Source of the DNA: an uncultured Gammaproteobacteria bacterium
GTDB taxonomy: Bacteria > Patescibacteriota > Patescibacteriia > 2-12-FULL-60-25
Direction: 5' to 3'
Assembly: GCA_964582475.1 (NCBI GenBank)
Contig: CAZOQS010000004.1
Span: forward strand, 63,489-127,488
DNA length: 64,000 bases
Shown here in pieces: positions 1,432 to 63,576 of the stretch. Position numbers and translations under genes: made by a program. The notes under the pieces are model-generated. The model was not told the DNA's origin and did not search any database. It was given only the letters and a program-made list of their open reading frames with translations. How positions within the stretch are numbered: the first letter of the stretch is position 1; each line of letters opens with the position of its first letter.

Positions 1432-2007
1432 TTATTGTTGCGTCGAGCTCGCGGTCGCCATCAACCCTTTATCCTGATCGATACCCGTCGTATTCTTTAC
1501 CTCACTCTCAGGAGAGAAATCATTGAAGGTGAGAACGGTTTGGCCTTCTTTGTAGTTGGTGAAGAATGAATCTGGGAGGTCATCCACTTTGGTACTCCAA
1601 TCTTTCCCGTAGAGTTGTTCCGCCACTTCTTCTGTTTTGATCCAGCGAAGCACGCCACCACGAGTGATCGCATAGACTTTTGGATCCGTATCTACCTTGA
1701 TTAAGCGCACGCCAGGCTTATAGGTGACATTCCCCCCAAGCGGGGTTTTGATGAGCTCCGCATCCGCAATCTGTTTCACATAGGTAAATGTATCGAACCA
1801 AGAAAGGTAGGTTTTATCATTCGGAAAGACGTAGCGTTTTCCATCAGGTCCAAGATAGTAAACGGTGGTCCAGGAAGTGCCTTTGATGAGGCGCCCGTTT
1901 GTAGGGTCGGCTGGTTTGGTGGGGGATGGGGCGGGTGAATCTTTCGAACAGCCAGCGCCAGCGAGGGCGAGAAAGAAAATACTCGAGATGAGAAGGAGTT
2001 TTTTCAT
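1432..2007 (-). CDS. Hypothetical lipoprotein
   Basis: Signal peptide MKKLLLISSIFFLALAGAGC with lipobox L-A-G-A-G-C. Host-like GC and a pyrimidine-type start context. No recognisable catalytic motif. Confidence 0.6.
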   Translation of the reverse strand: MKKLLLISSIFFLALAGAGCSKDSPAPSPTKPADPTNGRLIKGTSWTTVYYLGPDGKRYVFPNDKTYLSWFDTFTYVKQIADAELIKTPLGGNVTYKPGVRLIKVDTDPKVYAITRGGVLRWIKTEEVAEQLYGKDWSTKVDDLPDSFFTNYKEGQTVLTFNDFSPESEVKNTTGIDQDKGLMATASSTQQ

Positions 2008-2064: not shown

Positions 2065-2093
2065 TTGACAAAATGCCTATTTTATAGTATAGT
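2065..2093 (+). promoter_or_regulatory. Sigma70-like promoter reading toward the high-GC lipoprotein gene
   Basis: TTGACA (2065-2070), 17-nt spacer, TATAGT (2088-2093), in an AT-rich intergenic stretch. Confidence 0.45.
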
Positions 2094-2241
2094 TCTCCGT
2101 TAATTTACAATGCGAGATCGTACCAAAGTAGGCTAGAACACCGCCTTAATTCGTGGATAGAGCTTCAAGGAAGTGGCGCTTGAGGTCCTGTCCGCGATTC
2201 GCGGCTGGAGAGTCAATAGTGCATGAAGGAGGTCGACGACG

Positions 2242-3309
2242 ATGAGAAGCAAGAAGATTGGTTTGGGTCTCGGTGCGGTGCTGACGACGATCATGGGCTG
2301 TGCCCAGATCGAGATCGGTCCGCAGACGCGACTCCGGAGGGTCGAGGACACCGGCACGACGCTGCCGCCCTCGGCCAACAACACCTCGCCCCCCGTGGAC
2401 GAGCCCGACACCGGTACGCTCGTCTCCGACGACGTGCCCTACGTCGAACCGGCGGAGGACGGTGGCTCGATGGAGCTGCCGGTCGACGCGGGTGACCCCA
2501 TCGAGCCGGAGGACGTCCCGACCCCGGTCGAGCCCGACGCCGGTCCGATGCTCCCGCCCGGGGAGCTGACGGCTTCGCGCTTCGACCTCACCCTCAGCCC
2601 CGGACGCATCATCGGCGGGACGTACCAGGACCTCCTGGGGCTCGTCTTCCGTTCGACCGGTGCGCCGGTCGCGCTGAAGATGTTCCGTATCGGGTTCACG
2701 ATCGGCGGCGCCATGAACGGCGACCCGATTCCGAACTGGACGCTCAGCGACCTCGCCTTGCGCGGGACCGCGAACATCCCCGGGCTCCGGATGTCCATTC
2801 GCAGCGAGCGGATCCTGCCGAGCATGGGGTTCGAGGGTGGGTACACCAACACGGTGGTCACCTTCGTCTACGACCGCGAGCTCATCGTCACCCGGGACGG
2901 CGTGACGGCGACCTTCGGCGGCCGCTCCACGGGTGATCTCCGCCTCGGCGACCGCCTCTACACCAGCTTCGTCTTCGGTGAGGGGCGATACACCTACGCG
3001 GGTAGCTCGGAGGGCGCACTCCTCCCGGGCAACTACCTGTTCCCGAGCTACAGCGAGGTCACGGCGGACGGGCCCCACCTGTTCTACGGTACTGGCCGCT
3101 GCGACACCATCGTGCCGGCGGCCTACCACATGCCGGGCAACGCCACGCGCGGCATCATCCTGTGGTCGCCGCGCCTGCCGGGCCACAATGAGCTCGATTG
3201 CAGCAACGGCGGATCTGCCGACTGGCACAACGTGCTGGCTGCGCAGTACGACGGCCACGGCGGCGGCCCCATCAACTCGTACAGCACGGAGTACACCGCC
3301 GTCCCCTGA
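2242..3309 (+). CDS. High-GC hypothetical lipoprotein (compositionally foreign)
   Basis: ATG preceded by AAGGAGG (2226-2232). Signal peptide MRSKKIGLGLGAVLTTIMGC. GC3-rich codons (42/60 G+C in row 2401-2460). Acidic/Pro-rich linker followed by a globular domain. Confidence 0.65.
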   Translation: MRSKKIGLGLGAVLTTIMGCAQIEIGPQTRLRRVEDTGTTLPPSANNTSPPVDEPDTGTLVSDDVPYVEPAEDGGSMELPVDAGDPIEPEDVPTPVEPDAGPMLPPGELTASRFDLTLSPGRIIGGTYQDLLGLVFRSTGAPVALKMFRIGFTIGGAMNGDPIPNWTLSDLALRGTANIPGLRMSIRSERILPSMGFEGGYTNTVVTFVYDRELIVTRDGVTATFGGRSTGDLRLGDRLYTSFVFGEGRYTYAGSSEGALLPGNYLFPSYSEVTADGPHLFYGTGRCDTIVPAAYHMPGNATRGIILWSPRLPGHNELDCSNGGSADWHNVLAAQYDGHGGGPINSYSTEYTAVP

Positions 3310-3436
3310 ACCTTCCCACCCCGCTTGGTCCTGAGCTAACAGGACCGTCAGAGCAGCGCTCACCCGCTGCGGCTCCCCGGATGCCCTGACCATCCACTCC
3401 CTCCTTTGTCATTCTCTCTGAGGATGAAAGAGGTCG

Positions 3437-3472
3437 CACAAACACCGAGCTGAGCTCGGTGTTTGTGTTTTT
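3437..3472 (+). terminator. Rho-independent terminator
   Basis: Stem CACAAACACCGAGC / GCTCGGTGTTTGTG followed by TTTTT. Confidence 0.7.
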
Positions 3473-3839
3473 AGGAGAATGGGGTTTTAAGGAGCGCTCA
3501 AGAAACAACTCTCACCGCGCCCCGCGGACAGCAACACACTGCGTGCTGATCCCAGGGGTGCGTTGTTGTATTCAGGGGAATGTCTCACCAGTTTTTGAGG
3601 TTTTTATTGAGTACAATAGGCTATACTCCAGCATATGATTGATGGAAGAGCGCGTATAAGTAGCGAGGCGAACTCGTGGGCCGCTCCCTCTTGTAGGAGA
3701 AAGAGAGTAAAAGATATTGAGATAATATTTTAATACACATATTAGTTGTATTCTCTTTTCAGTACAAATAAAAACACCTCTCTTACGAGAAGTGTTTTTG
3801 TTTGTACCAATCTCAGCTTGTATATCGAGCTGAGCTCGA

Positions 3840-3914
3840 TGGAGCGGGTAGGGGGAGTCGAACCCCCATCTCGTCCTTGGCAAGGACGCATAATAGCCGC
3901 TATACGATACCCGC
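3840..3914 (-). tRNA. tRNA-Gly (anticodon GCC), CCA encoded
   Basis: The reverse complement reads GCGGGTATCGTATAGCGG...CGTCC-TTGCCAA-GGACG...GGGGGTTCGACTCCCCC-TACCCGC-T-CCA. It has a 7-bp acceptor stem, a T-loop GGTTCGA and discriminator U. Confidence 0.93.
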
Positions 3915-3973
3915 TTGGGCGCTATTTACGCGCCCAGGATAGTACCAGGGGTAAAGCCGGCTTGCAAGGCCGT

Positions 3974-6508
3974 TTAGGTGGTACTTGGAATAGGTTGTTT
4001 CGGAAGGAGCTGGGTGGCTTTTCGTTTTTCGAGCCAGCGACGGATGCCTTCGACGGCGCCAATGCTTCCGAGGGCAATGCCGATGGCGTTCCAGGGGAGG
4101 TTGGTGCTGCTTGGGCTGGTGGCGGCTGTCTTGGTGGTTGGCTCTGGATGACGAAGGATCACAATGTCAGCCGCTTTCGAGGGTTGGATTTTCCAGACGC
4201 CACTTCGCCCATCAAAGATGCCGCTGACTTCGATTGTATCGCCTGTTTTTACGCGTTGCGCGCGATAGCCAAGGATGGCTTTGATCGGGATCGTTACTTC
4301 TCCAATCTGTGCCTCAAGCGTGATGGCGGAAGCGCGACTGTCGGTAACGAGGCCTTCGAGTTTGGTGAAGCTCCATTGATCTTCGATGCCGGGAGCGGTC
4401 CATTCAACGAGGCGTGGACTTGAAGTTGTGGTGAGCGCTACCGATTTCCAGGTATCGCCTGCTTCCATCTGAAGTTGGACCCCTTCATCATTCGCAAACA
4501 GGAGTCCGGTGATTTCAATTGTTTCGCCGAGTTGAGGACTGGGTTGAGCGGTTGTGGCTTTGACAAGCAGGCCGCGTCCATCTGGGGCGAGGAGTACGAA
4601 GCGCTGCTTTCCAAAGACGCCAACCGTTGATCCGACCAAGCCTTGAAGCCGTACGCGAACACGTGGCGTGAGCTGTTCGGCAGGGATCTGTTCGAAGTGA
4701 GTCACAGAAGAGGGGAGAACAAGAGATTTCTTAGTGGATGTTGCGGGAGCTTTTTTAGCTGTGGGTTTGGCTGTGGCCCTTTTCTTCGCAGGCGTTTTCT
4801 TGGGGACTGCAGTCTTCTTTTCGGTGGTATTACTGGATGAATCGGTGGAGCTCTTCGCAGCCGTTCCGAGAGTCTTAACTTCGCCTGTACTCTTCGGTGC
4901 AGTAGACGGGGGTGCAGATTGCTTAGCTGAAGCGACAGACTTGGGTTGAGTACCCGTCTTCGCTGTGACGGTCTTTGGAACGGGGGTTGCTTTCACCGCT
5001 GGTGTGGCTACGGTAGCCGCTTCAAACACGTTTGGAGCGTTCTTAGTGGGACGACGAGTGAGCTTCCAGGTGGATGAGAGATCATCTCTCATCCAAGAAG
5101 TGCCTTTCAAGCTCGCTCCATAGCGTACTTCTTGCGCAATTGTTCCGTCGGCACGTCTTAATCGAACAAGCGCGCCAGCATTTTTCAGTTTCGCGGTTTT
5201 CCAAGCGGGAAGGAGATACGCTCCTTGAGGATTCAGGGCTTGGATCGTTGGAGCCGTCAACGAGAAGATGAGTTTTCCATCGGCTTCTAATTTCCAATCA
5301 ATATAGCGGAGGGGGCTCGCGTTCTCTGGGAGTCTGAGCTCGATCCACTCTTCTTCGCCGGGAGCAGGGGCAGCCATGATTTCCGTGATAACCAGATCGA
5401 AGGCGGCGGAATCGAGAGGAGTTAAAACAGGAGCAGAACTTGGTGGAGCACTGGGGGGTATTACAGCAGGAGAAGGTACGGCTACGGAGGAGATTGTAGA
5501 CGTAACGTGTTCAATGGTGCTGGTTACAGGGGGAGTTGAAGTTGGGGTGATGACGAGTGTGGAAGTCCCCGACTCGAACGGGAGGATCTCGTCCGTACTT
5601 GTGACAGAAATGATTTCGGGAAGCTCGGGAGTTTCTTGTATCTCTGGTAGAGCTGATGTGCTCGTTGGGAGAGGAGCGGGTTCATAGGGGGAAGGTGCGG
5701 GTAAGTCAGATTGTTCTTCGATCAGGTCGGCAGGAGTCACTCCGTAGAGCAACTCCTCCTCCGGGTCTAAGAGAGGTGGCTCGGGCGCAGGCACGGGCTC
5801 TTCGGTGGGAAGGGTGCGTACTTCTTCCACCTCTTCGGGCAAGGGAATAGATTCGGTGACGATAGGAGTGGTGCTGGTGGTTGCGGGAAGAGCGTTTTCA
5901 GCCCCTGGCTTTGGTATCGGCGTGCATTCATCACAGACGCCGGGAGTGCCAAGATCAGGAGCGCTCGGGTTGAAAACGCTTGTAGCCGACTTCCAAATCC
6001 ATCCAGTCGTTGAAGCGGTTCTGATCATGCTCGTATTGAGTGGAGTGGAAGCGCCAGCCGGAGGCTTTGTTCCCGTTCCCGCGCTATCTCTGAGCGCACC
6101 GGTTTGATCACGCAGCTCAATCAAGAGGCGATCATTTGTAAGCGATAAGGTGCTGGTTGAAAGAGCGATGGTTTGGGTTGTGAGCAGCGTCTTATCCGAT
6201 GTGTTCGTGTAGTTCGCGATGAGGAGCGTTTGTTGTGGAGCGATGCTGTCTGTCTGGGTGAAGAAGATAGGTGTATCGCTGACACCAGTGAGTGACCAGC
6301 CCGCAAGAGAGACGGGCTCGGTGCTAATGTTCCATAATTCGAGCCATTCATCTGCGGTCGAGCGGGAAGACCCAGACCACTGGATTTCACCGATGAGAAT
6401 CTGAGTGGATGGTTCAAAGGCCAAGGTGGCTTGAAGCGGAGTGAATAAGGTACACCAAACCAACAGAGACGAGAGCAGAGCTCGTCCCCTTGAGCTGGGG
6501 CGGGGCAT
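3974..6508 (-). CDS. Large secreted/anchored surface protein with two lamin-tail (LTD) domains and C-terminal OB-like domains
   Basis: N-terminal signal sequence. LTD-type motifs GEIQWSGS...DEWLELWN and ITEIMAAP...EEWIELRL. Long P/T/S/E linkers and a K/T/A-rich basic linker. C-terminal TM helix WNAIGIALGSIGAV followed by basic residues. Confidence 0.75.
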   Translation of the reverse strand: MPRPSSRGRALLSSLLVWCTLFTPLQATLAFEPSTQILIGEIQWSGSSRSTADEWLELWNISTEPVSLAGWSLTGVSDTPIFFTQTDSIAPQQTLLIANYTNTSDKTLLTTQTIALSTSTLSLTNDRLLIELRDQTGALRDSAGTGTKPPAGASTPLNTSMIRTASTTGWIWKSATSVFNPSAPDLGTPGVCDECTPIPKPGAENALPATTSTTPIVTESIPLPEEVEEVRTLPTEEPVPAPEPPLLDPEEELLYGVTPADLIEEQSDLPAPSPYEPAPLPTSTSALPEIQETPELPEIISVTSTDEILPFESGTSTLVITPTSTPPVTSTIEHVTSTISSVAVPSPAVIPPSAPPSSAPVLTPLDSAAFDLVITEIMAAPAPGEEEWIELRLPENASPLRYIDWKLEADGKLIFSLTAPTIQALNPQGAYLLPAWKTAKLKNAGALVRLRRADGTIAQEVRYGASLKGTSWMRDDLSSTWKLTRRPTKNAPNVFEAATVATPAVKATPVPKTVTAKTGTQPKSVASAKQSAPPSTAPKSTGEVKTLGTAAKSSTDSSSNTTEKKTAVPKKTPAKKRATAKPTAKKAPATSTKKSLVLPSSVTHFEQIPAEQLTPRVRVRLQGLVGSTVGVFGKQRFVLLAPDGRGLLVKATTAQPSPQLGETIEITGLLFANDEGVQLQMEAGDTWKSVALTTTSSPRLVEWTAPGIEDQWSFTKLEGLVTDSRASAITLEAQIGEVTIPIKAILGYRAQRVKTGDTIEVSGIFDGRSGVWKIQPSKAADIVILRHPEPTTKTAATSPSSTNLPWNAIGIALGSIGAVEGIRRWLEKRKATQLLPKQPIPSTT

Positions 6509-8137: not shown

Positions 8138-10981
8138 ATGCGTGATCCTGCCTCCAGAGCGGACCAAGAACCGGACGCGCTTTCTCAAGATGAACAGATC
8201 TTTTTAGATGGATTGCTCTCTCGAGTAGGTGGACCGGTTCCCGCACAGCCAGCGAAGCGTCGAACAAGAAGAAAACTTCGACGGAGTGCTTCGCGTACAC
8301 AAAGTTTGCAGGACGCAGAATCGATTGAGCAGCCAACAATTCACCTCCGTACTTCACATAAGGGTCCAGTTCGAATCCCTGTTCAGCATCGTCCCCACAC
8401 GCAGAGTCCTTTTTTGGTCACCGTCCAGGGATTGGTCCAGCCAATTTACGAAGAAGAGCGGTCTCCACGCGAGCATTCCATTCATGAGTGGGAATTACCC
8501 GCTGAGCTATCCGTTTCTTCCGAGGCGTTGCTTGCCGAAGCGTTGGATTTACACCTTCCTGATGTTGATCCGTTTATTTTTCATCAGCAATTCACCCCAG
8601 GTGATGCGGATGTTGCGTATGCGCAGACCTATGGATTTTGGACACGTGTTCGTAGGCCCTTTATTCGCTGGGAAGTCTCGCGTGCGGAAAAGCGAGCGAA
8701 TGTCCCGGTAAGACCTGTTCAGGCTGTACGCGTTACAAGTGAAGAGCATCTTCTTCCGTCGGACTTCGATTATCAGTGGACTACACAGACAGGAGCGAAG
8801 CGCACAGCCTTGCGGCACCAGCTAGCGCTTGTACGGCATCGCGTTTCTGCATTTTTCTTGCGCACAACTGAGACGATTGAAGATACAGTTACTGAATTTG
8901 AAGAGCGTGAGGAGGGAGTCATTACAGAGACTGAGCAAGCTTGGGGCGTACCTGTTTTGGTCCCACGGTTGGACTTCATAAAGATTTTTGGTGGGTTAGC
9001 AGCCTTACTCCTTGTTGCGAGTTTGCCTGCAGGGGCAGTTTCCTTGTCTCGCTCCTTCCGAGGGACAGTCGAACAGAGCTTGGGTCAGAGTCGATCGGCT
9101 GTGGAAGAGGTGACGCGCATGACCGACTCAGCGAATCCATTGTTGATGGCGCCATCGGCGTTGGCGGCTGCCTCTGAGCAGTTCCGTTTGGCTGAAGACG
9201 GGCTTCGCCAGGTGAATGGTCTTACGACCCTGATCGTGCGTTCGTTGCCACAGACTCGCGAAGCCTATCGAACGAGCGTCGCGCTGTTAGATGCGGGTAC
9301 GCAGGCAACGAAGGCGGGTCGACTCGTAACGGAGGGCGTACAAGAAGCGCTCACCATGCAGGTCCGTCATCCTATTGAACGCATTACAACGCTTCAAACA
9401 TTCGTGGATGCTGCGATTCCAACGCTTCGCAAAGCAAGTGATCGCATGGGGGATGTGAATGAGGAGCTCCTGCCTGAGGGGGAGCGAGAGAAGGTGGTTC
9501 AGGCGCGAACAGCGATTGAAGGTGGGTCACGTGCGCTGGAAGATATTTCCAAAACGCTTAGCTTTGCCCGTTTGCTGATGGGGGAGGCGCGTGAACAGAC
9601 CTATCTCCTCGTGTTCCAAAACCAGGCAGAGCTTCGTCCAACGGGTGGATTCATGGGATCGGTCGCCGAGGTTATGATCGATCGTGGAGATATTGATCAG
9701 GTGTTTATCCCAGGAGGTGGCCCTTATGATTTGCGTAGCCAGCTGAAGAGTCGTGTGCTCGCGCCAAAGCCTCTCCACCTTGTAAATCCACGTTGGGAGT
9801 TCCAAGACGCGAACTGGTTTCCAGACTTCGCCGCTTCGGCCGAAAAGATTAGCTGGTTCTGGAGTCAGGGCGGACAGTCCACGCTGGATGGGGTGATTGC
9901 GGTGAATGCCTCTGTCCTTGAGCCGCTCCTGCGCTTCACGGGCCCAATTGACCTGCCAGACTATGGAAAGAGCTTCACGGCGGATAACATCCAGTTAGAG
10001 CTGCAAAAAGCGGTGGAACTTGAATACGACAAGACAGAAAACAAGCCAAAGAAGATCATTGGAGATCTCTTCCCAGTGTTGCTTGAGCGTCTCCGGAACG
10101 CCCCACCGGAGGAAACATTGAAGCTCATTTCTATTTTGGACGAGTCGCTCCGAAAGAAGGATATCCAGTTGTGGTTCCGTGATCAGGAATTGCAAACATA
10201 CACCGAACGCTTTGGTTGGGCGGGTCGCATCAAGCCCACAAAGGGTGATGCGTTGAGTCTGATCGAGGCAAACATCGGTGGCCAGAAGACGGATGCGGTT
10301 ATTCGAGAAGCGATGGATCAACGCGTTCAGATCCTGCCAAATGGTCAGATTGAAACGATTGTTACGCTGGATCGCACGCATGACGGAAAACAGGGGCAGC
10401 TGTTCCGTGGAGCAAATAACGTCGAGTACGTTCGTTTGTATGTTCCTCTCGGTTCCGAACTCCTTTCAGTTGAAGGGGTCCAGCCTCCGACGACCACGGC
10501 TTACAAGTTGCCAATCGCCCAAGATCTTCCAGATCCTGATTTAGCGAGATACGTGAATTTGCCACGTGTCGGTCCAGCAGGGGTAGATATTACGCAGGAA
10601 TTCGGCCGTACGGCCTTTGGTGCGTGGGTGCAGCTCCGACCGGGGGCAAGTTCTCGAACCGTGTTCCGCTATCGATTGCCGTTTACGGTTCAGGAGCTGT
10701 CCGAGCGAGCCATGTCTGACTACGGAGGAGCGACTCCAGAACGTGGAGGCGCCTATACGCTCTATCTCACCAGCCAATCAGGGAAGACGGATCGAAGTTT
10801 AAATCTCCACGTACATTATCCAGAAGCGTGGAACGTTCGTTGGTCGAATCGTGAAGACCTTATCCAGAAGCCAGGCGTCTTGACCTGGTCCGGTCCGATG
10901 GCCGAAGATCAGATTTTTGCCTTGTCCTTTGCCCTCCCTTCGTCCTATGAACAAACCACCGTCCGACAAGAAGGAGAGTAG
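8138..10981 (+). CDS. DUF4012-family large membrane-anchored protein
   Basis: Contains the DUF4012-type signature FQNQAELRPTGGFMGSVAEV and one TM helix (IFGGLAALLLVASLPAGAV). First ATG at 8138; the ORF track starts at a TTG at 8126. Confidence 0.75.
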   Translation: MRDPASRADQEPDALSQDEQIFLDGLLSRVGGPVPAQPAKRRTRRKLRRSASRTQSLQDAESIEQPTIHLRTSHKGPVRIPVQHRPHTQSPFLVTVQGLVQPIYEEERSPREHSIHEWELPAELSVSSEALLAEALDLHLPDVDPFIFHQQFTPGDADVAYAQTYGFWTRVRRPFIRWEVSRAEKRANVPVRPVQAVRVTSEEHLLPSDFDYQWTTQTGAKRTALRHQLALVRHRVSAFFLRTTETIEDTVTEFEEREEGVITETEQAWGVPVLVPRLDFIKIFGGLAALLLVASLPAGAVSLSRSFRGTVEQSLGQSRSAVEEVTRMTDSANPLLMAPSALAAASEQFRLAEDGLRQVNGLTTLIVRSLPQTREAYRTSVALLDAGTQATKAGRLVTEGVQEALTMQVRHPIERITTLQTFVDAAIPTLRKASDRMGDVNEELLPEGEREKVVQARTAIEGGSRALEDISKTLSFARLLMGEAREQTYLLVFQNQAELRPTGGFMGSVAEVMIDRGDIDQVFIPGGGPYDLRSQLKSRVLAPKPLHLVNPRWEFQDANWFPDFAASAEKISWFWSQGGQSTLDGVIAVNASVLEPLLRFTGPIDLPDYGKSFTADNIQLELQKAVELEYDKTENKPKKIIGDLFPVLLERLRNAPPEETLKLISILDESLRKKDIQLWFRDQELQTYTERFGWAGRIKPTKGDALSLIEANIGGQKTDAVIREAMDQRVQILPNGQIETIVTLDRTHDGKQGQLFRGANNVEYVRLYVPLGSELLSVEGVQPPTTTAYKLPIAQDLPDPDLARYVNLPRVGPAGVDITQEFGRTAFGAWVQLRPGASSRTVFRYRLPFTVQELSERAMSDYGGATPERGGAYTLYLTSQSGKTDRSLNLHVHYPEAWNVRWSNREDLIQKPGVLTWSGPMAEDQIFALSFALPSSYEQTTVRQEGE

Positions 10982-16747: not shown

Positions 16748-17635
16748 ATGGCGCTGAACAATCTCGCACAGCGGTTCGTGGTGGCTAGTGTTGCTATCCC
16801 GGCGCTTCTGGGAGCGCTCTACTTCCGACAGGGGATCATCTGGTTCGTCCTCTGTCTGGTCTTCGCCCGTCTGGCGGCGAAAGAGTTCCTGGCGCTGGTC
16901 GCGCCAGACGAACCGGAGTCGACGGGCTACCACCCGCTGTTCTACCTCCTGTATGGAGGGGTGTTCGTCACACTCTTCCTGGCAGTGTCGCGGCACAGCC
17001 TGTTCGGCCTGCACTTCGAGGGGCTGCTCCCGCTGCTCTATGGCGGCCTGATCCTCGCGGTCGCAGTGCTCCTCTCCATCCTGATCTTCCCGCCCCTGCT
17101 CACACAGAAGCGGTTGAAGATCGGTGGCCTGGCGCTCGGGCCCTTCTACCTCGCGGGGCCCTTCGCTCTGCTCGCGCTCATTCGGCTGTACGGTACGTCG
17201 GCCGAGGGAGCGGGGCTCTGCATCTTCACGCTGTCAGTCGCCTGGCTCGGGGACTCGGTCGCCATGCTCTTCGGCAAGACGTTCGGCGGTCCGAAGCTCT
17301 ACCCGACCGTCTCGCCGGGGAAGACCTGGAGCGGCGCCGTGGGCGGGCTCATCGGCTCGGCCTCGGTCGTGCTCTTCGCCAAGCTGCTCTTCCTGCCCAG
17401 CCTCCCGGTCGGGAAGGGGATCGCGCTCGCGCTCTTCGCCGGCGCCTTCGGGCAGCTCGGTGACCTGTGCGAGTCAGTTCTCAAGCGTACGACCGGGGTC
17501 AAGGACTCGGGCAGCTCGCTGCCGGGCCATGGAGGCTTCCTCGACCGCGTCGATGCGCTCTTGTTCGTGACCCTGGTGGTCTTCGGCGCGCTCCAGTCGG
17601 GCTGGCTCGGTTTCTCGTTGCCGTCCACTCGTTAG
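16748..17635 (+). CDS. cdsA: Phosphatidate cytidylyltransferase (CDP-diglyceride synthase), high-GC
   Basis: CdsA signature SVLKRTTGVKDSGSSLPGHGGFLDRVD. Multi-TM protein. 42/60 G+C in row 17341-17400. AGGAG at 16734-16738 upstream of the ATG. Confidence 0.88.
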   Translation: MALNNLAQRFVVASVAIPALLGALYFRQGIIWFVLCLVFARLAAKEFLALVAPDEPESTGYHPLFYLLYGGVFVTLFLAVSRHSLFGLHFEGLLPLLYGGLILAVAVLLSILIFPPLLTQKRLKIGGLALGPFYLAGPFALLALIRLYGTSAEGAGLCIFTLSVAWLGDSVAMLFGKTFGGPKLYPTVSPGKTWSGAVGGLIGSASVVLFAKLLFLPSLPVGKGIALALFAGAFGQLGDLCESVLKRTTGVKDSGSSLPGHGGFLDRVDALLFVTLVVFGALQSGWLGFSLPSTR

Positions 17636-19314: not shown

Positions 19315-19391
19315 CGGGGTATAGCTCAGTTGGCCAGAGCGCCTGCATGGGGTGCAGGAGGCCGCAGGTTCAAGTCCTGTTACCCCGACCA
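19315..19391 (+). tRNA. tRNA-Pro (anticodon GGG), CCA encoded
   Basis: CGGGGTA-TA-GCTCAGTTGGCCAGAGC-G-CCTGC-ATGGGGT-GCAGG-AGGCC-GCAGGTTCAAGTCCTGT-TACCCCG-A-CCA. Perfect acceptor stem. Confidence 0.9.
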
Positions 19392-20944
19392 TCAAGGAAA
19401 TCTCCTTGCAAGAGGAAGTCGCTGAACGGCTGTAATAGGCTAATGTCAGCGACTTTTTCGTTATCCACGACGAAGTTCGAGAACATCAAACGGATCACTT
19501 GGTCGCGGTATGCTAAATCGTCCGTGTTTTGCAGCGTTTGCCCAATGTTTCCAAACAGTTCGAGAAAGGTCTCATACGTCATCGGCGCGTCCTTGGATTT
19601 GGCGATCAGCTCCTCTGTTTCTTTGATTGTTTTTTCAATGTCGGCTTTGTCCGCCTTCACTTTTTCCATGTCGCCCTTGAAATGCTCGGTGAGCATATCG
19701 TCGTTTTTGAGCATGATACCTTTGACGCGCTCCATGGTTTTCTCGTTTTCCGTATGTGCCCTATGAAGGGATTTGAGACGGCTTTCCAGCTCCTCACGGT
19801 GCTGAATGCTCTCGATGGCGACGGTACGGCAAAATCGGTCGTAGTTCGAGCGTGTAGCGAAGACATGGGTTTCGAGGAAGTCGAGGACGTAACGCATAAC
19901 GACACGGGCGCGCAGGTTCCGTTTTGGCCTCTCACACGTTTTTGTTTCGCAACGGTAGTAGTAGATGCCCGTCGTGCCGTTCGCCTTTTTCGGCTTGGTC
20001 GTGATACCTGATCCCATGGGTCGTTTGCAGTACGAACAAATAACCATGCCTCGTAGGAAGTCTGCTTTCGCGCCCTTTCGCTTTTTCGTCGGCTTCACCA
20101 TTTTGAACGCCGCCCCAATGTCGGAGAGAGCGTTGATTTTGAGAAACGCATCAACGGACACGGCTGGCACGAAGTCGTAGGCTTCGGTGAAATCAACGAT
20201 CGTGCCGCCATGCATAAGTACGCCCGCATAGATGGGATCATGAAGTATGTTGGCGACTTTGTTGATCGTCATGTGATATGGCTTGCGAACTTCTCCCTCG
20301 GTGGGAGCGCGGGTATAGCGAGACTTGTTCAAAAACTCGGCTACTTCTTCCTGCGTCTTTCCTTCGGCGCGAAGCTCAAACGCACGCTTCACCATGACCC
20401 AATACTCCCCATCAGGACGAAGGTGATCGTTTGGGTCTTTGTAGTAGCCATGTTTAGCGATGTGGATGTACTTGCCCTCCTCCAAGGCTCTACGTTGCCC
20501 GCGTTGCACAACTTCGCTCAAATGGTCGCTGTATTGCTTGGAGAGGACGAAACTGATGCCAAGAAGCATTTTGCCCATCGGGGTATCCTCGAAACTAAAC
20601 GTGGCAAAAGAAAGGTTTTTGATGATCTTTTTATCGAGTAAGTCGATGATCTTGCCCGCGTCGGCCATGTTGCGGGCGAGACGGTCAGGGTGCCATGTGA
20701 GAATGGCGTCGTACTTGCCGAGCTTGATGGCTTCGATCATCTTTTTGAACTTGTCGCGTATGTCAGGCTCTTTTGCACTTTCCTGTTCCTCGACCACTGT
20801 GATGTGACTTTCAGGGATACCAAGACGCTTCGCCGCATCAAAACAGTCGAGTTTTTGGTCGGGAATGGAGCGTTCTTGCCTCTCGTCCGAGGTCGTTGAC
20901 TTGCGCACGTACATGACAAAACGGAGCTTGGTGATGTCTATCAT
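19370..20944 (-). CDS. Large serine recombinase (resolvase/invertase N-domain + recombinase domain + zinc ribbon + coiled coil)
   Basis: Catalytic-Ser region FVMYVRKSTTSDERQERSIPDQ, followed by DRLARN. Cys cluster CSYCKRPMG...YYRCETKTC. Start set at the ATG at 20944, which is preceded by GAGGAGG with a 5-nt spacer; the ORF is open up to 21088. The stop lies inside the tRNA-Pro 3' end. Confidence 0.85.
   Translation of the reverse strand: MIDITKLRFVMYVRKSTTSDERQERSIPDQKLDCFDAAKRLGIPESHITVVEEQESAKEPDIRDKFKKMIEAIKLGKYDAILTWHPDRLARNMADAGKIIDLLDKKIIKNLSFATFSFEDTPMGKMLLGISFVLSKQYSDHLSEVVQRGQRRALEEGKYIHIAKHGYYKDPNDHLRPDGEYWVMVKRAFELRAEGKTQEEVAEFLNKSRYTRAPTEGEVRKPYHMTINKVANILHDPIYAGVLMHGGTIVDFTEAYDFVPAVSVDAFLKINALSDIGAAFKMVKPTKKRKGAKADFLRGMVICSYCKRPMGSGITTKPKKANGTTGIYYYRCETKTCERPKRNLRARVVMRYVLDFLETHVFATRSNYDRFCRTVAIESIQHREELESRLKSLHRAHTENEKTMERVKGIMLKNDDMLTEHFKGDMEKVKADKADIEKTIKETEELIAKSKDAPMTYETFLELFGNIGQTLQNTDDLAYRDQVIRLMFSNFVVDNEKVADISLLQPFSDFLLQGDFLDGRGNRT
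19416..19459 (+). terminator. Intrinsic terminator downstream of tRNA-Pro(GGG)
   Basis: Stem AAGTCGCTGA / TCAGCGACTT with a 20-nt loop, followed by TTTT. Lies inside the 3' end of the recombinase reading frame on the other strand. Confidence 0.6.
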
Positions 20945-21110
20945 TTTCGCCTCCTCGGGCTTATGGAAGGCTATGAGGGCTTCGTATAGGTCTTTTGAGG
21001 TGTGCATACGGGGCTCATTGTAGCGGAAAAGGCTGATTTTGTGAGTTGGCGGCTTTTGCTGTAACGTGGCTAATGGGTTGTCCTGCAAAGGTATTATCCA
21101 AAATCTACAT

Positions 21111-21761
21111 ATGAAGTCTTTTTCGAAAATAAACGCACCAGAGATCTATGCGGTTCCGATTCAAGAGAACGGGGAGCCTCTTGTAGACCTTTTGATAGAT
21201 TGTCCCGACATTTTCGTCGATCAAACGCGGCAATACGCACAAGACGTTTCAAAGTCCATTTCATGCGTTCGCAAGCAAGTTGCCGAGCGGTTGAAACAGG
21301 CGGCCGCTCAACTTCCTGCGGGGATTCGTTTCAAGATCGTTGAAGGTCATCGCTCATTAGGGGCGCAACGCCATATCTTCGCCGAAGTGATGGACGACGT
21401 TAGAAAAGACCATCCGAGCTGGAACGAACAAGAGATTTACGATGAAACATCGACTTTTGTTGCTCCACCCGATAACACGCCCCCACATTCAACAGGAGGA
21501 GCCGTTGATCTCACTTTGATGGCAGTGGATGGCACAGAACTCGACATGGGGGCAGATCTCAACGATGGATACTCGGGCATTTGTTATACGTTTTCGGAAT
21601 CAATCTCGGAAGAGGCGAAAAAGAACCGCCAGATCCTCATTCAGGCGATGCAAGGCGCGGGTTTTGCCAACTATCCTGCGGAATGGTGGCACTGGTCTTA
21701 CGGTGATCGCTACTGGGCATTCATGACGGGTGCATCCGTTGCTATTTACGGTTCAATGTGA
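21111..21761 (+). CDS. D-alanyl-D-alanine dipeptidase (VanX/DdpX-like, peptidase M15D)
   Basis: Motifs EGHRSLGAQ, PPHSTGGAVDLTL and AEWWHWSYGD match the VanX zinc/catalytic arrangement. ATG at 21111. Confidence 0.8.
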   Translation: MKSFSKINAPEIYAVPIQENGEPLVDLLIDCPDIFVDQTRQYAQDVSKSISCVRKQVAERLKQAAAQLPAGIRFKIVEGHRSLGAQRHIFAEVMDDVRKDHPSWNEQEIYDETSTFVAPPDNTPPHSTGGAVDLTLMAVDGTELDMGADLNDGYSGICYTFSESISEEAKKNRQILIQAMQGAGFANYPAEWWHWSYGDRYWAFMTGASVAIYGSM

Positions 21762-21787
21762 TAAGGAAGTCGCACAGGAGGTAGGTG

Positions 21788-22348
21788 ATGCAAGGTGTCT
21801 ATCGTCGTCCGTTTCCATTCACTCGGCGTGAGTTTCCGTTCTTCTTCTGGTCGCGCATCGAGCCCAACTCGGTCGCGCATGTGGGGCGTGACAAACACGC
21901 CGTCGACTTCCTCGTTCCCGAGGGGACGCCCGTCTGCGCTCCGCGTGATGGTGTCGTGACCGAGGTCAAGGACGGTTCAGATCGTGGAGGGGCTGATCGA
22001 GCCTTCGAACATGACGCCAACTACATCGTGATCGACCACACGAGCGCGACGTTCAAGGTGATGGGCTACTCGCGGCTCGCGTGGAGCGATGAAGAGCTGG
22101 GAGGAGGCCACAACCCCGTCATCGACGAGGACGAGGGTCAACGCTCGATCATCATCCACCTCGCCAAGGACAGTGCCCGCGTGAAGGTAGGCGACCACGT
22201 TCGAGCGGGTCAGATCATCGCCATGCAAGGGTCTACTGGCTGGACGTACGCGCCACACATCCACTTCGCCGTGTACCAGAACGGCACCAGCGTTCCGATT
22301 CACTTCCGTTCATCCGTGGAAGTGGTCGGGGATCTGCTGATCCAGTAA
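21788..22348 (+). CDS. M23-family metallopeptidase (high-GC)
   Basis: HxxxD motif (HAVDFLVPEGTPVCAPRDG) and HxH motif (APHIHFAVY). AGGAGG at 21776-21781, 6 nt before the ATG. 41/60 G+C in row 21901-21960. Confidence 0.8.
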   Translation: MQGVYRRPFPFTRREFPFFFWSRIEPNSVAHVGRDKHAVDFLVPEGTPVCAPRDGVVTEVKDGSDRGGADRAFEHDANYIVIDHTSATFKVMGYSRLAWSDEELGGGHNPVIDEDEGQRSIIIHLAKDSARVKVGDHVRAGQIIAMQGSTGWTYAPHIHFAVYQNGTSVPIHFRSSVEVVGDLLIQ

Positions 22349-22401
22349 TCAAATACACAGAAGCCCGCGTCACATGACGCCCCGCCTGCTTCTGTGCAAC
22401 T

Positions 22402-22440
22402 CCCCGCAACGCGAACTCGCTTGTGGGGTTCGTCGTTTTT
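22402..22440 (+). terminator. Possible terminator after the M23 gene
   Basis: CCCCGCAA ... TTGTGGGG stem followed by TTCGTCGTTTTT. Confidence 0.4.
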
Positions 22441-22556
22441 ATAAGGCTTATTGTAGCGGATAAAGAAACAAAGCAAGTTGAGGCTTATCAATCACAAGAC
22501 TGGGATAGAACTCGTGGATCGGTAAAGAAACGGAAAACAAAAGGTCAACTTTTTTT

Positions 22557-22961
22557 CTACACCTCGCACGTTCCCTGTACCGCGATGTCAAAATCCGCCA
22601 CGTCTCGCGTGTACTCGAACACAAGCGGTTTTCGTTCCCGTCGTACCTCCTCCAAAACCTTGAAGAGCAGTCCATAGAGCTTGTCAGTCGGTACATCGAA
22701 GATGGAGCGGCTTTCGAGTTCTTTTTCTATGGATTCAAGCCGTCGTGAAAGGATGTGAAGCTCATGTTCTTGGGTCAGGCGGTACTTCTCCCGTAGTGCC
22801 TCGTCGTGAATCGCGCGTAGGTTGCGTATCTGTTCAGCCAATTCTCGGCTCCATAGCATGAGAGTAGGCTTGGAGACGTTGATCTCTTCGCTGATACTCG
22901 AAAAGCTCTTGCCTTGGCTACGCAATTCAACGAACCGATCCTTGCAGGCAGCATCTTTCAT
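22557..22961 (-). CDS. Small helix-turn-helix protein (phage/element regulatory or terminase-small-like)
   Basis: N-terminal HTH RSQGKSFSSISEEINVSKPTLMLWSRE followed by a coiled-coil-like region. Confidence 0.55.
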   Translation of the reverse strand: MKDAACKDRFVELRSQGKSFSSISEEINVSKPTLMLWSRELAEQIRNLRAIHDEALREKYRLTQEHELHILSRRLESIEKELESRSIFDVPTDKLYGLLFKVLEEVRRERKPLVFEYTRDVADFDIAVQGTCEV

Positions 22962-23482
22962 AGGGGTACACGCTCACCGTTCAAGACCTTCTCTCATGGA
23001 GAGGGTTTTGTTTAGTTGCGCGGGTTTTTCTCGCCAAGTTCGATCCGTTCACCGCTTGGAAGACGGACGATCATGGGATCGCTCCCACCCGAAGAAGACT
23101 GGGGCGTTGAGGGCGGAGGCGTTGGCTTGCTCTGCAATGCGCCTGCGAGGTCGCTTTGATTGTCTTTGGTTGGCATAGGTTTGCCCTTATTCTACGCGCT
23201 CATAACGAAATAGCAAAGGCAGTAGCGACGGACTTCCATGCGGTCAAGGCTTGGAGCTTCTCATTCGTTTTGAGATACGTGTCGATGAGGGCGATGATGT
23301 CGTAGGTGAGTTCAAGAGAGGTCTTTGAACCCCGACCAGCGAGAACGCCGCCCATCTAGGGCGGTTTTTCGTTGACAGAGGGGGAGATTTGGAAGAGATT
23401 GAGAGGTCCATCTAAAGGGTGGCCCCGGTGACTAGGTTGGTCATGCGGTCCTACGGATCAGCGGAGAGGAGTTGAGTATCCA

Positions 23483-23947
23483 ATGAAGTACGTCGTCTTC
23501 GTTCGTCACGGGTCCTACAGCGAGAACACGGGGAGACTGAATGGGTGTGGGGTTGAACAGATGCGGCTGCTAGCCGAGAAGCTGAGACTTCTCTCGTCTG
23601 ATAGCGGACGATTCCGCCTGATCTGTTCGATTGCGCCTCGCGCGGTCGATAGCGCTCTCGAGCTCTTTGATGCCCTCAAGCTGGACGGGTTCGAGGCGCA
23701 CGGGCTCCTGTGGTCCGATAATCGGCACCAGCAGAGGGATGATGCGGCGCTCGAACTCATCAGGCACCGCGGTGAGGGGGCGGATTCACTGATCGTGGTA
23801 TCGCACCTTGATTACGTCCGCGATCTCCCGCCTAAGTTCGCCAAGCGCACGCTCGGCCAGACGATCGAGACGATCGAGCTCTCGAAGGGGCAGGCGCGGC
23901 TGATCGACTGTCGTGCCGCTCGCCCGACCGATCTGATCCTTTCCTGA
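23483..23947 (+). CDS. Histidine phosphatase family protein (SixA-like), high-GC
   Basis: RHG motif (VFVRHGSY) and a second His (VVSHLDYV). GGAGAGGAG at 23463-23471. 38/60 G+C in row 23641-23700. Confidence 0.7.
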   Translation: MKYVVFVRHGSYSENTGRLNGCGVEQMRLLAEKLRLLSSDSGRFRLICSIAPRAVDSALELFDALKLDGFEAHGLLWSDNRHQQRDDAALELIRHRGEGADSLIVVSHLDYVRDLPPKFAKRTLGQTIETIELSKGQARLIDCRAARPTDLILS

Positions 23948-41369: not shown

Positions 41370-42179
41370 ATGATGAACGAAGAACAGCAACCAACCTCCG
41401 CGCCAGAGGCGCCAGAAGCAGCAGCTGCTCCAGCTGCTGAAAACACAGCCGCTCCAGCGGCAGCGGCGGCAACGCCAGCTGCAGCTCCTGCGTCTGCTTC
41501 GGCTGCAGCACGTCCATATGGTGGAGGTGCCCGTGGTCCAGGCGGTGGCTTCCGTGGCGGAAGCCGCGGTCCAAGCGGAGGTGCTCGTGGCGGCCAGGGT
41601 GGTCGCGGCGGTGCTGCCGGTGGTCGTGGAGGTCGAGGTCCAGGCGGCCCAGGTGGTCGCGGTGGACGTCGCGATGGTCAGTCTGGAGATGTTCCAGCCG
41701 AAGCCGACTACGACGAAAAGAACTTGGAAGTCTCACGTGTTACACGTGTGACCCAGGGTGGAAAGCGCATGCGCTTCCGCGTGTTGAGCGTGATCGGAAA
41801 CCGCAAGGGACGTGTTGGATATGGCTTGGCAAAAGGATTGGATGTCGCAGCTGCTTCCACCAAGGCCGCAACCAAAGCACGCAAAGCCCTTCTGACAGTT
41901 CCACTCATCAACGAAACAATTCCTCACATGGTGCGTGCAAAGGCGGGTGCCGCTGTCGTCTTGTTGAAGCCAGCGCCAAAAGGAGCTGGAATCAAAGCCG
42001 GTGGTGCAACGCGTGCCGTACTTGAAATCGCTGGTGTACCAAACGTTGTTTCGAAGCTCCTCGGATCTTCCAACAAGGTGAACGTCGTGCGCGCAACTTT
42101 TGCCGCCCTGCGCATGCTCCGCATGCCAATCAGCAAGACGGACGATAAACAGCCTAAGGAAGACGCTCCAAAGGCCTAA
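41370..42179 (+). CDS. rpsE: 30S ribosomal protein S5 with an N-terminal Ala/Pro then RGG-repeat extension of about 110 aa
   Basis: The S5 core starts near LEVSRVTRVTQGGKRMRF. The preceding residues are AAAPAA... and GGARGPGGGFRGGSRGPSGGARGGQGGRGG... Confidence 0.93.
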   Translation: MMNEEQQPTSAPEAPEAAAAPAAENTAAPAAAAATPAAAPASASAAARPYGGGARGPGGGFRGGSRGPSGGARGGQGGRGGAAGGRGGRGPGGPGGRGGRRDGQSGDVPAEADYDEKNLEVSRVTRVTQGGKRMRFRVLSVIGNRKGRVGYGLAKGLDVAAASTKAATKARKALLTVPLINETIPHMVRAKAGAAVVLLKPAPKGAGIKAGGATRAVLEIAGVPNVVSKLLGSSNKVNVVRATFAALRMLRMPISKTDDKQPKEDAPKA

Positions 42180-42190
42180 TCTCACCTGCT

Positions 42191-42658
42191 ATGTCATTAA
42201 GTCTTCACACAATTGCCCCGAACGTAGGCTCACATGAGCGCTCGTTCCGTATCGGTCGTGGTCACGGCTCCGGTCGTGGCAAAACGGCAGGTAAGGGAAC
42301 AAAGGGTCAGAAGTCCCGTTCCGGTGGAAAGGGTGGCTTGAAAATGCACGGCATGAAGCAGATGCTTCTCTCCTTCCCAAAGGTCCGTGGGTTTAAGAGC
42401 TTTGCGTCGAAGTTGGTCTCGATTCCTGTTCAGCGCTTGGATGTATTTCCAGAAGGAACGACGATTGACTTGAAAGCCATGCATGCAGCCGGTCTCTTGC
42501 ATCGCGGAGAACATACCGTCAAAATTATTGGGGGAACAGCTCCAACGCACAAACTGACAGTTGTCGGCTTGCGTATGACTGCTTCTGCGAAGGAATTGAT
42601 CGAGAAAGCTGGTGGATCGGTCGTTGCTGGTGACAGAAAGAAAAAGAAGACTGCCTAA
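42191..42658 (+). CDS. rplO: 50S ribosomal protein L15
   Basis: GRGHGSGRGKTAGKGTKGQKSRSG canonical. Follows rpsE directly, with no rpmD between them. Confidence 0.96.
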   Translation: MSLSLHTIAPNVGSHERSFRIGRGHGSGRGKTAGKGTKGQKSRSGGKGGLKMHGMKQMLLSFPKVRGFKSFASKLVSIPVQRLDVFPEGTTIDLKAMHAAGLLHRGEHTVKIIGGTAPTHKLTVVGLRMTASAKELIEKAGGSVVAGDRKKKKTA

Positions 42659-63228: not shown

Positions 63229-63576
63229 GTCCTTTCCGTTGAACTCCGTGACAGGCAGTCCGCTCAGATCCGTATTGTCGAGACAGCGCGCGTTTACAGC
63301 GATCATTTCTTGTCCGTCTGGGCCGGCACCGCGTGAGAAGGAGCGGACTCCGCAGTGCTTGCAGAAAAGATGGTGCAATTGTTTCTTTCCAAATTGATAA
63401 TCGGTCAGAGCATCTTGGCCTGATTCAAGTGTGAATTGAGATGCAGGAACAAATGCGAGTAACCAACCACCTTTGGAACAAATGGAGCAGTTGCAGGACA
63501 TGAGTTCTTTTAGCTCCACGTTGACCGTATAACGTACGGCGCCACAGTGACAGCCGCCGGTGTAGGATTGGTTCAT
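63223..63576 (-). CDS. GFA-family (glutathione-dependent formaldehyde-activating / CENP-V-like) zinc protein
   Basis: GGCHCGAVRY ... CNCSICSK ... CKHCG cysteine pattern. ATG at 63576. Confidence 0.8.
   Translation of the reverse strand: MNQSYTGGCHCGAVRYTVNVELKELMSCNCSICSKGGWLLAFVPASQFTLESGQDALTDYQFGKKQLHHLFCKHCGVRSFSRGAGPDGQEMIAVNARCLDNTDLSGLPVTEFNGKDL

Follow-up and report, generated by a model that had tools for sequence, protein, structure and literature searches.

The described systems closest to the locus considered here are bacterial lipoproteins with disordered tethers (substrates of Lgt and LspA), genomic islands, genes subject to GC-biased gene conversion (gBGC), hypervariable surface-protein genes in Candidate Phyla Radiation (CPR) bacteria, and structured leaders and 3' untranslated regions (UTRs) of the Rfam type. 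The locus lies in a 64,000-nucleotide stretch (the window; positions 63,489 to 127,488 of contig CAZOQS010000004.1) and comprises a gene for a predicted 355-residue lipoprotein at 2242-3309 on the plus strand, together with its promoter, leader, structured 3' UTR and terminator. With tethered lipoproteins it shares a charged n-region, a hydrophobic core, a lipobox cysteine, a low-complexity linker and a globular domain; unlike theirs, its mature domain matches no family or fold, and the methionine at lipobox position -2 is unusual. Genomic islands, whose description along with the amelioration model is reportedly due to Lawrence and Ochman, are alike in the sharp compositional step, the atypical codons, the adjoining tRNA gene and the surface-protein cargo, whereas here a single gene is concerned, no mobility functions, attachment (att) repeats or donor were found, and the orthologues show no amelioration. 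Genes under gBGC (PMC4450053) are alike in raised divergence and in an excess of G+C at third codon positions (GC3) that arises through non-optimal GC-ending codons. The PTD-repeat gene of Gracilibacteria (PMC6851277), a hypervariable CPR surface-protein gene, and the targets of diversity-generating retroelements (DGRs) are likewise fast-evolving extracellular proteins of reduced-genome, symbiont-type bacteria, but the present gene lacks a repeat array and an adenine-specific pattern, the window contains no template repeat for it, and it changes by ordinary substitution. Structured leaders and 3' UTRs of the Rfam type are alike in that a hairpin with compensatory changes stands between promoter and Shine-Dalgarno sequence and in that the 3' UTR is structured; in contrast to them, neither 2094-2241 nor 3310-3435 matches an Rfam 15 covariance model even at E<=10, and the leader hairpin is known from 5 copies.

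There is nothing out of the ordinary in a lipoprotein gene that has a promoter to itself, and the story of a foreign island under host expression signals, which an original prediction made from the letters of the window had told, does not hold. What is unusual is the combination of a GC3 of 0.9 that does not ameliorate, non-optimal codons, an RNA frame around unrelated GC-rich coding sequences, and an orphan fold; no description of persistently GC-rich genes in CPR bacteria was found in the literature searched. Atypical G+C is the commonest cue for recent horizontal transfer, and the locus would be a clean counterexample to it, one that rests on a stable foreign-looking composition, saturated synonymous sites, reduced genomes and codons that the host avoids.

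Base composition of the gene and of its orthologues

The coding sequence (CDS) has a G+C content of 0.684 (0.63, 0.52 and 0.90 at the first, second and third codon positions), against 0.523 for the whole window. This lies 4.8 standard deviations above the mean of all 1068-bp segments (mean, 0.523; standard deviation, 0.033), which peak at 0.693 in 2321-3388, and the steps in G+C at the edges of the GC-rich stretch, near 2290 and 3400, are sharp. Among 72 putative genes from a rough gene call of the window (mean GC3, 0.55; standard deviation, 0.08), the CDS is the top outlier; the runners-up are the CdsA gene at 16748-17635 (0.87) and three milder genes (0.73 to 0.76). The high G+C on which the original prediction had built is borne out by these figures, and its 42 G or C letters among the 60 of row 2401-2460 were found again on recounting. 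Its phrase "host-type AT-rich promoter" fits the promoter stretch, which alone is AT-rich (33% GC), but not the host, as the surrounding genome has 52% GC.

Related loci, for which a four-sequence alignment was among the queries, are listed below by amino acid (aa) identity to the 355-aa protein, preceded by the gene of the window that serves as synteny partner.

1432-2007, minus strand: divergent lipoprotein gene, 191 aa, GC3 0.54; synteny partner, its product 98% identical in L001 and 68-72% identical in L006, at the equivalent position
L001: 78% identity; same 191-aa neighbor; GC3 0.908; flanking genes with GC 0.42-0.55 and GC3 0.33-0.63
L006: 41% identity; same 191-aa neighbor; GC3 0.901; flanking genes with GC 0.45-0.54 and GC3 0.34-0.64
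L005/L007: 42-44% identity; different neighborhood; GC3 0.894; flanks of about 0.44 G+C
L004: 23% identity; distant member; GC3 0.71; flanks of about 0.43 G+C
L009: 25% identity; distant member; GC3 0.77; flanking GC3 0.37-0.47
L010: 26% identity; in a six-gene cluster of secreted or lipoprotein-like proteins; GC3 0.76
L015: 24% identity; distant member; GC3 0.79; flanks of 0.46 G+C
L012: 25% identity; the exception; GC3 0.43; ordinary flanks
L013 and L014: 24% identity; contigs GC-rich throughout (0.62-0.65 G+C); GC3 0.78-0.83

More distant members, with a GC3 of 0.71 to 0.83, likewise surpass their flanks. The 191-aa gene adjoins the orthologue in three of the four copies with a GC3 of 0.9 (window, L001 and L006), and a MetRS-CvpA-TatD-DUF1653-HhH_GPD-NUDIX block is common to L001 and L006. 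At identical amino acids, fourfold sites differ between window and L006 by 0.54 (full randomization, 0.59) and between window and L007 by 0.62 (full randomization, 0.63), with G or C still at 88 to 90% of these sites in every copy; the adjacent gene of normal composition is near saturation too (0.59 versus 0.69, window and L006). Under a rough model of neutral amelioration (starting GC3, 0.95; equilibrium, 0.53; no fewer than 0.67 substitutions per site in each lineage), a GC3 of 0.57 to 0.72 is expected, against the 0.90 observed. Since the orthologues keep a GC3 of about 0.90 despite saturated synonymous sites, the composition reads as a conserved trait of the gene lineage. The original prediction of a captured foreign gene is contradicted at this point on grounds that it had itself named, the orthologues sharing the same GC3 within flanks of 45 to 53% GC, and the comparison of orthologues indicates that the GC anomaly is probably old, actively maintained and inherited with the gene lineage rather than the scar of a recent capture.

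Other genes of the window deviate as well. A second sharp outlier (GC 0.66, GC3 0.87) is the CdsA gene on the plus strand, which encodes phosphatidate cytidylyltransferase (Pfam E=2e-50); its one close relative, in L016 (94% identical), shows the same anomaly against flanks of 0.52 GC, and the remaining CdsA homologues found (at most 54% identity) agree with the composition of their flanks. A 245-aa open reading frame (ORF) at 61565-62302 (minus strand; GC 0.62, GC3 0.76) has neither a Pfam match nor an obvious signal peptide.

The transcription unit and its untranslated regions

The unit and the features that adjoin or overlap it are as follows.

2065-2093, plus strand: sigma-70-type promoter, TTGACA-17-TATAGT, 11 of 12 consensus matches
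2094-2241, plus strand: 5' leader of about 140 nt, with the start site inferred near 2100
2150-2197, plus strand: 48-nt leader hairpin, TTCGTGGATAGAG, inner hairpin, TCCTGTCCGCGA
2226-2232, plus strand: Shine-Dalgarno sequence AAGGAGG, 9 nt ahead of the ATG at 2242, kept in L001/L002
2242-3309, plus strand: CDS for the 355-aa orphan-family lipoprotein, with 68.4% GC and a GC3 of 90%
2146-3393, minus strand: antisense ORF of 415 aa, a by-product and not a gene
3310-3435, plus strand: structured 3' UTR with hairpins at 3327-3346, 3347-3390 and 3403-3433, fold z=-6.8
3436-3473, plus strand: intrinsic terminator, a perfect 15-bp stem (3437-3467) followed by a T-run (TTTTT)
3840-3914, minus strand: tRNA-Gly(GCC), just downstream, and downstream of the distant member in L009 too

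The promoter, the Shine-Dalgarno sequence, the GC-rich hairpin at about 3327-3346 and the terminator (placed at about 3437-3472) had all been pointed out in the original prediction, and all are present; the terminator was missed by a simple scanner and recognized by folding and repeat analysis. The whole of 2065-3473 is a single self-contained monocistronic transcription unit.

Both ends of this unit are better conserved than its middle. Identity to L001 is 88% over 2008-2241, which takes in the intergenic region, the promoter and the leader, and 93% over the 3' UTR; silent sites have diverged more than either. Directly after the leader, the codons of the signal peptide have diverged. In L006 and L007 the leader hairpin retains 77 to 79% identity, compared with about 56% nucleotide identity for the CDS. 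Each of its five distinct copies is exactly 48 nt long, and RNAalifold predicts 19 pairs, 4 of which show compensatory changes. A promoter of the TTGACAAAA type stands at the equivalent place in L001, in L006 and in a second unit of L006; the 3' UTR blocks CGTCAGAGCAGCG, CCTGACC and TCCTTTGTCATTCTCTCTGAGGATGAAAGAGG are kept in L001, L006 and L007, TCCTTTGTCATTCTCTCTGAGGATGAAAGAGG being identical in L007, and the terminator stems of L006 and L007 have changed in sequence with pairing retained. As judged from these alignments, the leader and 3' UTR elements are under purifying selection, and promoter, leader hairpin, 3' UTR and terminator appear to form a "UTR frame" that is co-conserved with the CDS as one unit. 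The distant family members also possess TTGACA promoters and leaders of 130 to 190 nt, of differing sequence.

The second unit of L006 (8530-9050, plus strand) was found with a covariance model of the leader hairpin, which detected an extra copy at 8579-8662 (E about 7e-7) with the same outer stem and a replaced inner hairpin. It has the TTGACAAAA promoter, the leader stem and a homologous 3' UTR and terminator, and these enclose an uncalled GC-rich ORF (8669-8902) for a Cys/Pro-rich protein of 77 aa with a C-terminal transmembrane helix, unrelated to the lipoprotein. The occurrence of two unrelated GC-rich CDSs inside one frame suggests a shared post-transcriptional control element, and the leader and 3' UTR structures may well exert such control. 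As two conserved UTR elements not described before, they could be the mark of a small regulon. The leader motif has no second copy within the window and gave 0 matches in the JGI metagenome and viral collections scanned.

Further GC-rich units were noticed near family members. In L007, an unrelated 330-aa lipoprotein-like ORF at 3012-4004 (plus strand) is an isolated GC-rich island (about 0.65 in flanks of 0.44 GC) with a TTGACA promoter to itself, about 140 nt of leader and a 3' UTR that is structured. GC-rich genes also adjoin the family member in L004, L009, L010 and L013, several of them with signal-peptide or lipobox-like N-termini, and six GC-rich companion genes that were scanned (none from L013) gave 0 Pfam matches. 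An upstream ORF of 8 codons in the leader (MRDRTKVG*, 2109-2135, plus strand) is kept in L001, is not kept in L006 or L007 and is probably not functional.

Candidate processes behind the third-position composition

Compared with L001, the CDS has a nonsynonymous divergence (dN) of 0.15, a synonymous divergence (dS) of 0.50 to 0.56 and a dN/dS of 0.27 to 0.30, versus 0.009, 0.31 and 0.03 for the adjacent 191-aa gene, so that the protein seems to evolve roughly 10 times faster than its neighbor and the silent sites appear about twice as diverged. The dN/dS ratio falls from about 0.7 in the signal peptide through 0.32 to 0.47 in the linker (residues 23-105) to 0.18 in the domain, and over the first 100 residues, which include the signal peptide, identity to L001 is 58%. 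The gene's codon choices run counter to those of the ribosomal-protein and elongation-factor genes (Pro CCA, 0% versus 66%; Glu GAA, 6% versus 75%; Arg CGG, 19% versus 1%), and translational optimization as the cause of the high GC3 is ruled out by this reversal.

Some active process would keep the CDS at a GC3 of 0.9. Of the candidates, gBGC ranks first, followed by selection on the mRNA, by re-seeding of a circulating cassette and, last, by recent capture. An enrichment of non-optimal GC-ending codons in recombining bacterial genes is given as the signature of gBGC in the study by Lassalle et al. (2015; PMC4450053). Recombination-linked gBGC at a diversifying surface-protein locus is our favorite, if a tentative one with chances well short of even, because the raised divergence and the excess of non-optimal GC-ending codons match that signature. 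Mutagenesis of the DGR kind was considered and rejected: self-BLAST of 2101-3480 against the window returned no template repeat, and there is no A-specific skew (AT skew near 0).

Several observations weigh against an old and actively maintained composition or against the processes and functions attached to it: (i) the evidence for persistence comes from few loci, the GC3-0.9 form being present in four distinct lineages only, so that "universal in the lineage" is not established; (ii) the neighborhood of L007 differs and the labels of the metagenome-assembled genomes (MAGs) conflict (Patescibacteria, "Gammaproteobacteria" and "Verrucomicrobiae"), which together make a transfer of the cassette between genomes possible; (iii) the member in L012 has an ordinary GC3 of 0.43, so a high GC content is not obligatory for the protein; (iv) the effects reported for gBGC in bacteria reportedly appear modest, and the excess of 0.35 in GC3 seen here is apparently far above them; (v) the leader hairpin is known from just 5 sequences, and the stability of the leader as a whole is unremarkable (z=-0.5); and (vi) the searches found no function, ligand or fold relative for the protein, and a binding role is hypothetical.

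Second in rank, and on balance unlikely, is selection on the mRNA, under which high G+C, non-optimal codons and structured UTRs would be selected together as a transcript trait, for example because cells poor in ribosomes benefit when the message of an exported protein persists for long or is translated slowly. It would account for a GC3 of 0.9 held through saturation, for two strongly structured UTRs that are both under purifying selection, for two unrelated CDSs in the same frame that are both GC-rich, and for the lower G+C of the first 11 or so codons, which is expected if initiation needs unstructured RNA. It is at odds with the GC3 of 0.43 in L012, with the normal composition of the other lipoprotein genes of the window, and with the raised G+C at first and second codon positions, which speaks for a pervasive pressure and not for codon choice alone. 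If either gBGC or mRNA selection does hold a gene 35 GC3 points above its genome, the calling of islands and the dating of amelioration could go badly astray for surface-protein genes.

We consider it less likely again that an old acquisition is continually re-seeded, that is, that a cassette of UTR frame and CDS circulates among small-genome bacteria and an unsampled GC-rich reservoir, its alleles being repeatedly replaced through homologous recombination in the conserved UTRs so that the resident copy is always "young." Conserved UTRs around a fast-diverging CDS, a dS in the CDS about twice that of the adjacent gene, the cassette of L007 in another neighborhood, the second cassette with the same frame in L006 and the GC-rich contigs L013 and L014 (0.62-0.65 throughout) are all in line with such a cycle. 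The GC-rich contigs, however, hold only distant members (24-31% identity) with a GC3 (0.78-0.83) below that of the window clade; conserved terminal repeats and mobility genes were not found, and the leader motif is absent from the metagenome and viral collections scanned.

A bolder proposal, which we regard as a long shot, builds on the frame: TTGACA promoter, 48-nt hairpin and structured 3' UTR with terminator might mark a few unrelated CDSs in one clade of Patescibacteria. Under this proposal, a locus-specific active process would hold the framed CDSs at a GC3 near 0.9 in genomes of about 50% GC, candidates for it being frame-guided recombination or gene conversion and RNA-mediated rewriting. 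If frame-marked CDSs exist in this sense, they would represent an undescribed way to maintain, and perhaps to diversify, the composition of surface genes in bacteria.

Recent capture, in which the gene of a GC-rich donor (e.g., one of the Actinobacteria or Myxococcota) has come to lie behind a promoter that was already there and still awaits amelioration, is very improbable. Composition and codon usage do look strongly foreign, a tRNA gene adjoins the locus at whose 3' end contigs diverge or stop, and further GC-rich genes are scattered through the window; linkers rich in D, A, G and P may resemble those in proteins of GC-rich phyla. Against this stand the orthologues, two in the same neighborhood (L001 and L006) and one elsewhere (L007), whose GC3 is the same and whose synonymous sites are saturated at 41 to 78% identity, and the co-conservation of promoter, leader and 3' UTR with the CDS. 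No homologue in a recognizable GC-rich donor phylum came to light among 1.84 billion representative proteins: the ten credible relatives include no such donor, for which the original prediction had suggested a look among Actinobacteria or Myxococcota. The transcription unit 2065-3473 contains no integrase and is bracketed by no att-like direct repeats, no plasmid or phage homologue of the gene was found, and no empty site was seen, the gene being present in L001, in L006 and in 8 of 8 contigs of the same population (few genomes). An ancient foreign origin of the ancestral gene is possible and is not needed for the explanation offered here, a composition inherited and maintained within the gene lineage.

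The region downstream of the terminator has features of its own. A 16-nt direct repeat (3446-3461 and 3826-3841; CGAGCTGAGCTCGGTG and CGAGCTGAGCTCGATG) joins the terminator loop to sequence abutting the 3' end of tRNA-Gly and brackets only a non-coding spacer of about 370 nt, partly very AT-rich (3701-3800, 26% GC). The independent contig L003 agrees in every base with the window as far as 3845, exactly at the 3' end of the tRNA gene, and continues into unrelated AT-rich sequence (L003 2019-2772) without a tRNA, and contig L044 ends at the same base as the L003 divergence; this suggests that strains vary structurally at the tRNA-Gly 3' end or that it is a hot spot for integration. As tRNA-Gly lies downstream in the window and in L009 alike, deep synteny is no worse an account of it than tRNA-targeted integration. 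A mobile cassette with terminal inverted repeats was also considered and discarded, as the pair found in the window (2181-2204 and 3515-3538) is not conserved in L006 or L007.

Two last alternatives can be set aside. That the 415-aa antisense ORF is the true gene, or that the locus is dual-coding, has next to no chance: the antisense frame is long and open in L006 and L007 too, but it is interrupted in L001, has no Pfam match and stays open in 1000 of 1000 synonymous shuffles, since a CDS without TTA, CTA and TCA codons cannot give a stop in the in-register antisense frame. Its G+C by codon position is 0.87/0.53/0.62, and its existence, to which the original prediction had drawn attention as typical of the genes of GC-rich genomes, is explained by a GC3 near 0.9. 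Substitutions relative to L001 fall 0.15/0.12/0.30 on the three codon positions of the plus frame, and dS is raised, not depressed; the third-position excess and the dN/dS of 0.27 to 0.30 give the pattern of a translated plus-strand gene, and by this pattern the plus-strand ORF is to be taken as a real gene of translated type. An assembly chimera, in which a GC-rich fragment of another organism was mis-joined at the sharp GC steps near 2290 and 3400, is excluded, with chances as close to nil: an identical protein is encoded on 8 contigs, from as many samples or assemblies (SRR12762274, SRR26425201, ERR8482633, SRR29748399, SRR13076572, SRR13076511 and GCA_020050275.1 among them), that are 99.5 to 100% identical to the window, three of these (L003, L043 and L044) carry the flanks and cover both GC junctions, and the divergent loci L001, L006 and L007 have the same architecture.

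The lipoprotein, its orphan family and its surroundings

The predicted protein has three parts.

2242-2301, plus strand: signal peptide with the lipobox I-M-G-C, MRSKKIGLGLGAVLTTIMG before the cysteine (Cys20)
2302-2553, plus strand: disordered tether, acidic and Pro-rich, from residue 21 to about residue 104, model confidence (pLDDT) below 50
2554-3306, plus strand: C-terminal beta-sandwich domain of about 250 aa, domain model with a pLDDT of 84 and a global score (pTM) of 0.85

The N-terminus (MRSKK followed by IGLGLGAVLTTIM) combines a basic n-region with a hydrophobic h-region, equivalent signal-peptide N-termini are found in 11 of 11 family members, and the lipobox cysteine shows at least 90% conservation across the aligned family, so the lipoprotein signal peptide seen by the original prediction stands. 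Methionine at lipobox position -2 is atypical, the relatives having VAGC, VAAC, VSGC, LIGC, LAGC and LVAC. All members have the acidic Pro-rich linker and then share a domain of about 230 to 250 aa with the invariant residues G220, G258, P262, G277, C287, W308, D319 and C320 and the conserved motifs GPH.Y.G.G.C and WS.R..HN..DC..GGS.DW. In the AlphaFold models the N-terminal 100 residues are disordered and the beta-rich domain is confident.

The mature protein has no recognizable domain, much as had been said of it from the sequence: the ORF has no match in Pfam, NCBIfam, PHROGs or PADLOC, none of the 11 family members matches Pfam, a sequence-profile search of the PDB gave nothing, and Foldseek returned no neighbor at E<1e-3 in PDB or BFVD for the full-length or the domain-only model. 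The homology searches and structure prediction thus leave a disordered tether and a confident beta-rich domain of no known relative fold, the best likenesses being weak (template modeling score up to about 0.4) and to beta-sandwich modules, e.g., toxin receptor-binding domains, CBM3 and AvmM. A word-indexed search of 5.8 billion proteins matched the ORF alone to itself and to P0002 (the 78% relative), and the family profile added P0009 only. An exhaustive HMMER scan of the 1.84 billion representatives yielded 11 matches, namely, the query's own cluster, nine credible relatives (27 to 44% identity) and P0005; with P0002 the credible relatives total ten. P0005, a 1433-aa repeat protein, was judged a spurious or motif-level match and left out of the alignments. 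The family profile, run against six-frame ORFs of the window and the related loci, detected no paralogue in the window and a tandem second copy in L013 only, where the paralogues at 3862-5244 and 5391-6273 have near-identical signal peptides; that contig (GC-rich throughout, 0.62) is labeled as a Verrucomicrobiae MAG and has PfkB synteny in common with L010.

On these grounds the protein is a predicted cell-surface lipoprotein of an orphan family, met so far mostly in small-genome contexts of the Patescibacteria type, to which most of the credible relatives belong; the family is not described in the literature searched. Lipid anchored at Cys20, it would hold a disulfide-containing beta-sandwich away from the membrane on an acidic tether of about 85 residues, and the architecture, with fast evolution concentrated in the exposed parts, leads us to infer that the domain may be a contact or binding module for a host cell or for the environment. 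The orphan surface-lipoprotein family would be new and could serve host contact in episymbiotic Patescibacteria. A DsbD/thioredoxin-type fusion encoded at 57492-59243 shows that the organism handles extracytoplasmic disulfides.

As to the organism, a 181-kb contig titled "Patescibacteria group bacterium Gw_Eff_bin_431," carries both a homologue of the 191-aa gene (68-72%) and the orthologue of the ORF. CPR bacteria characteristically lack L30, and in the ribosomal operon of the window (41370-42658) only 12 nt separate the S5 gene from the L15 gene that comes next, leaving out L30, in agreement with a CPR/Patescibacteria genome. Two other family loci are labeled as "Gammaproteobacteria" and "Verrucomicrobiae" MAGs; the labels were treated with caution, and with such discordant labels a restriction of the family to Patescibacteria is not proven. 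The S5 protein of the window carries an Ala/Pro-rich N-terminal extension of about 110 aa.

Among the other genes of the window, one right beyond tRNA-Gly (3974-6508, minus strand) encodes a secreted protein of 844 aa with two Lamin Tail Domain matches and long low-complexity regions rich in Pro, Thr and Ser, which is probably another surface protein. Farther away, the gene of a large serine recombinase (Resolvase, Recombinase and Zn_ribbon_recom domains; 19370-21088, minus strand) abuts tRNA-Pro(GGG) at 19315-19391, and beyond it lie an M23 peptidase gene (21785-22348; GC3 0.73) and a weakly His_Phos_1-like ORF (23483-23947; GC3 0.74); the region 19315-23947 may be an integrated element.

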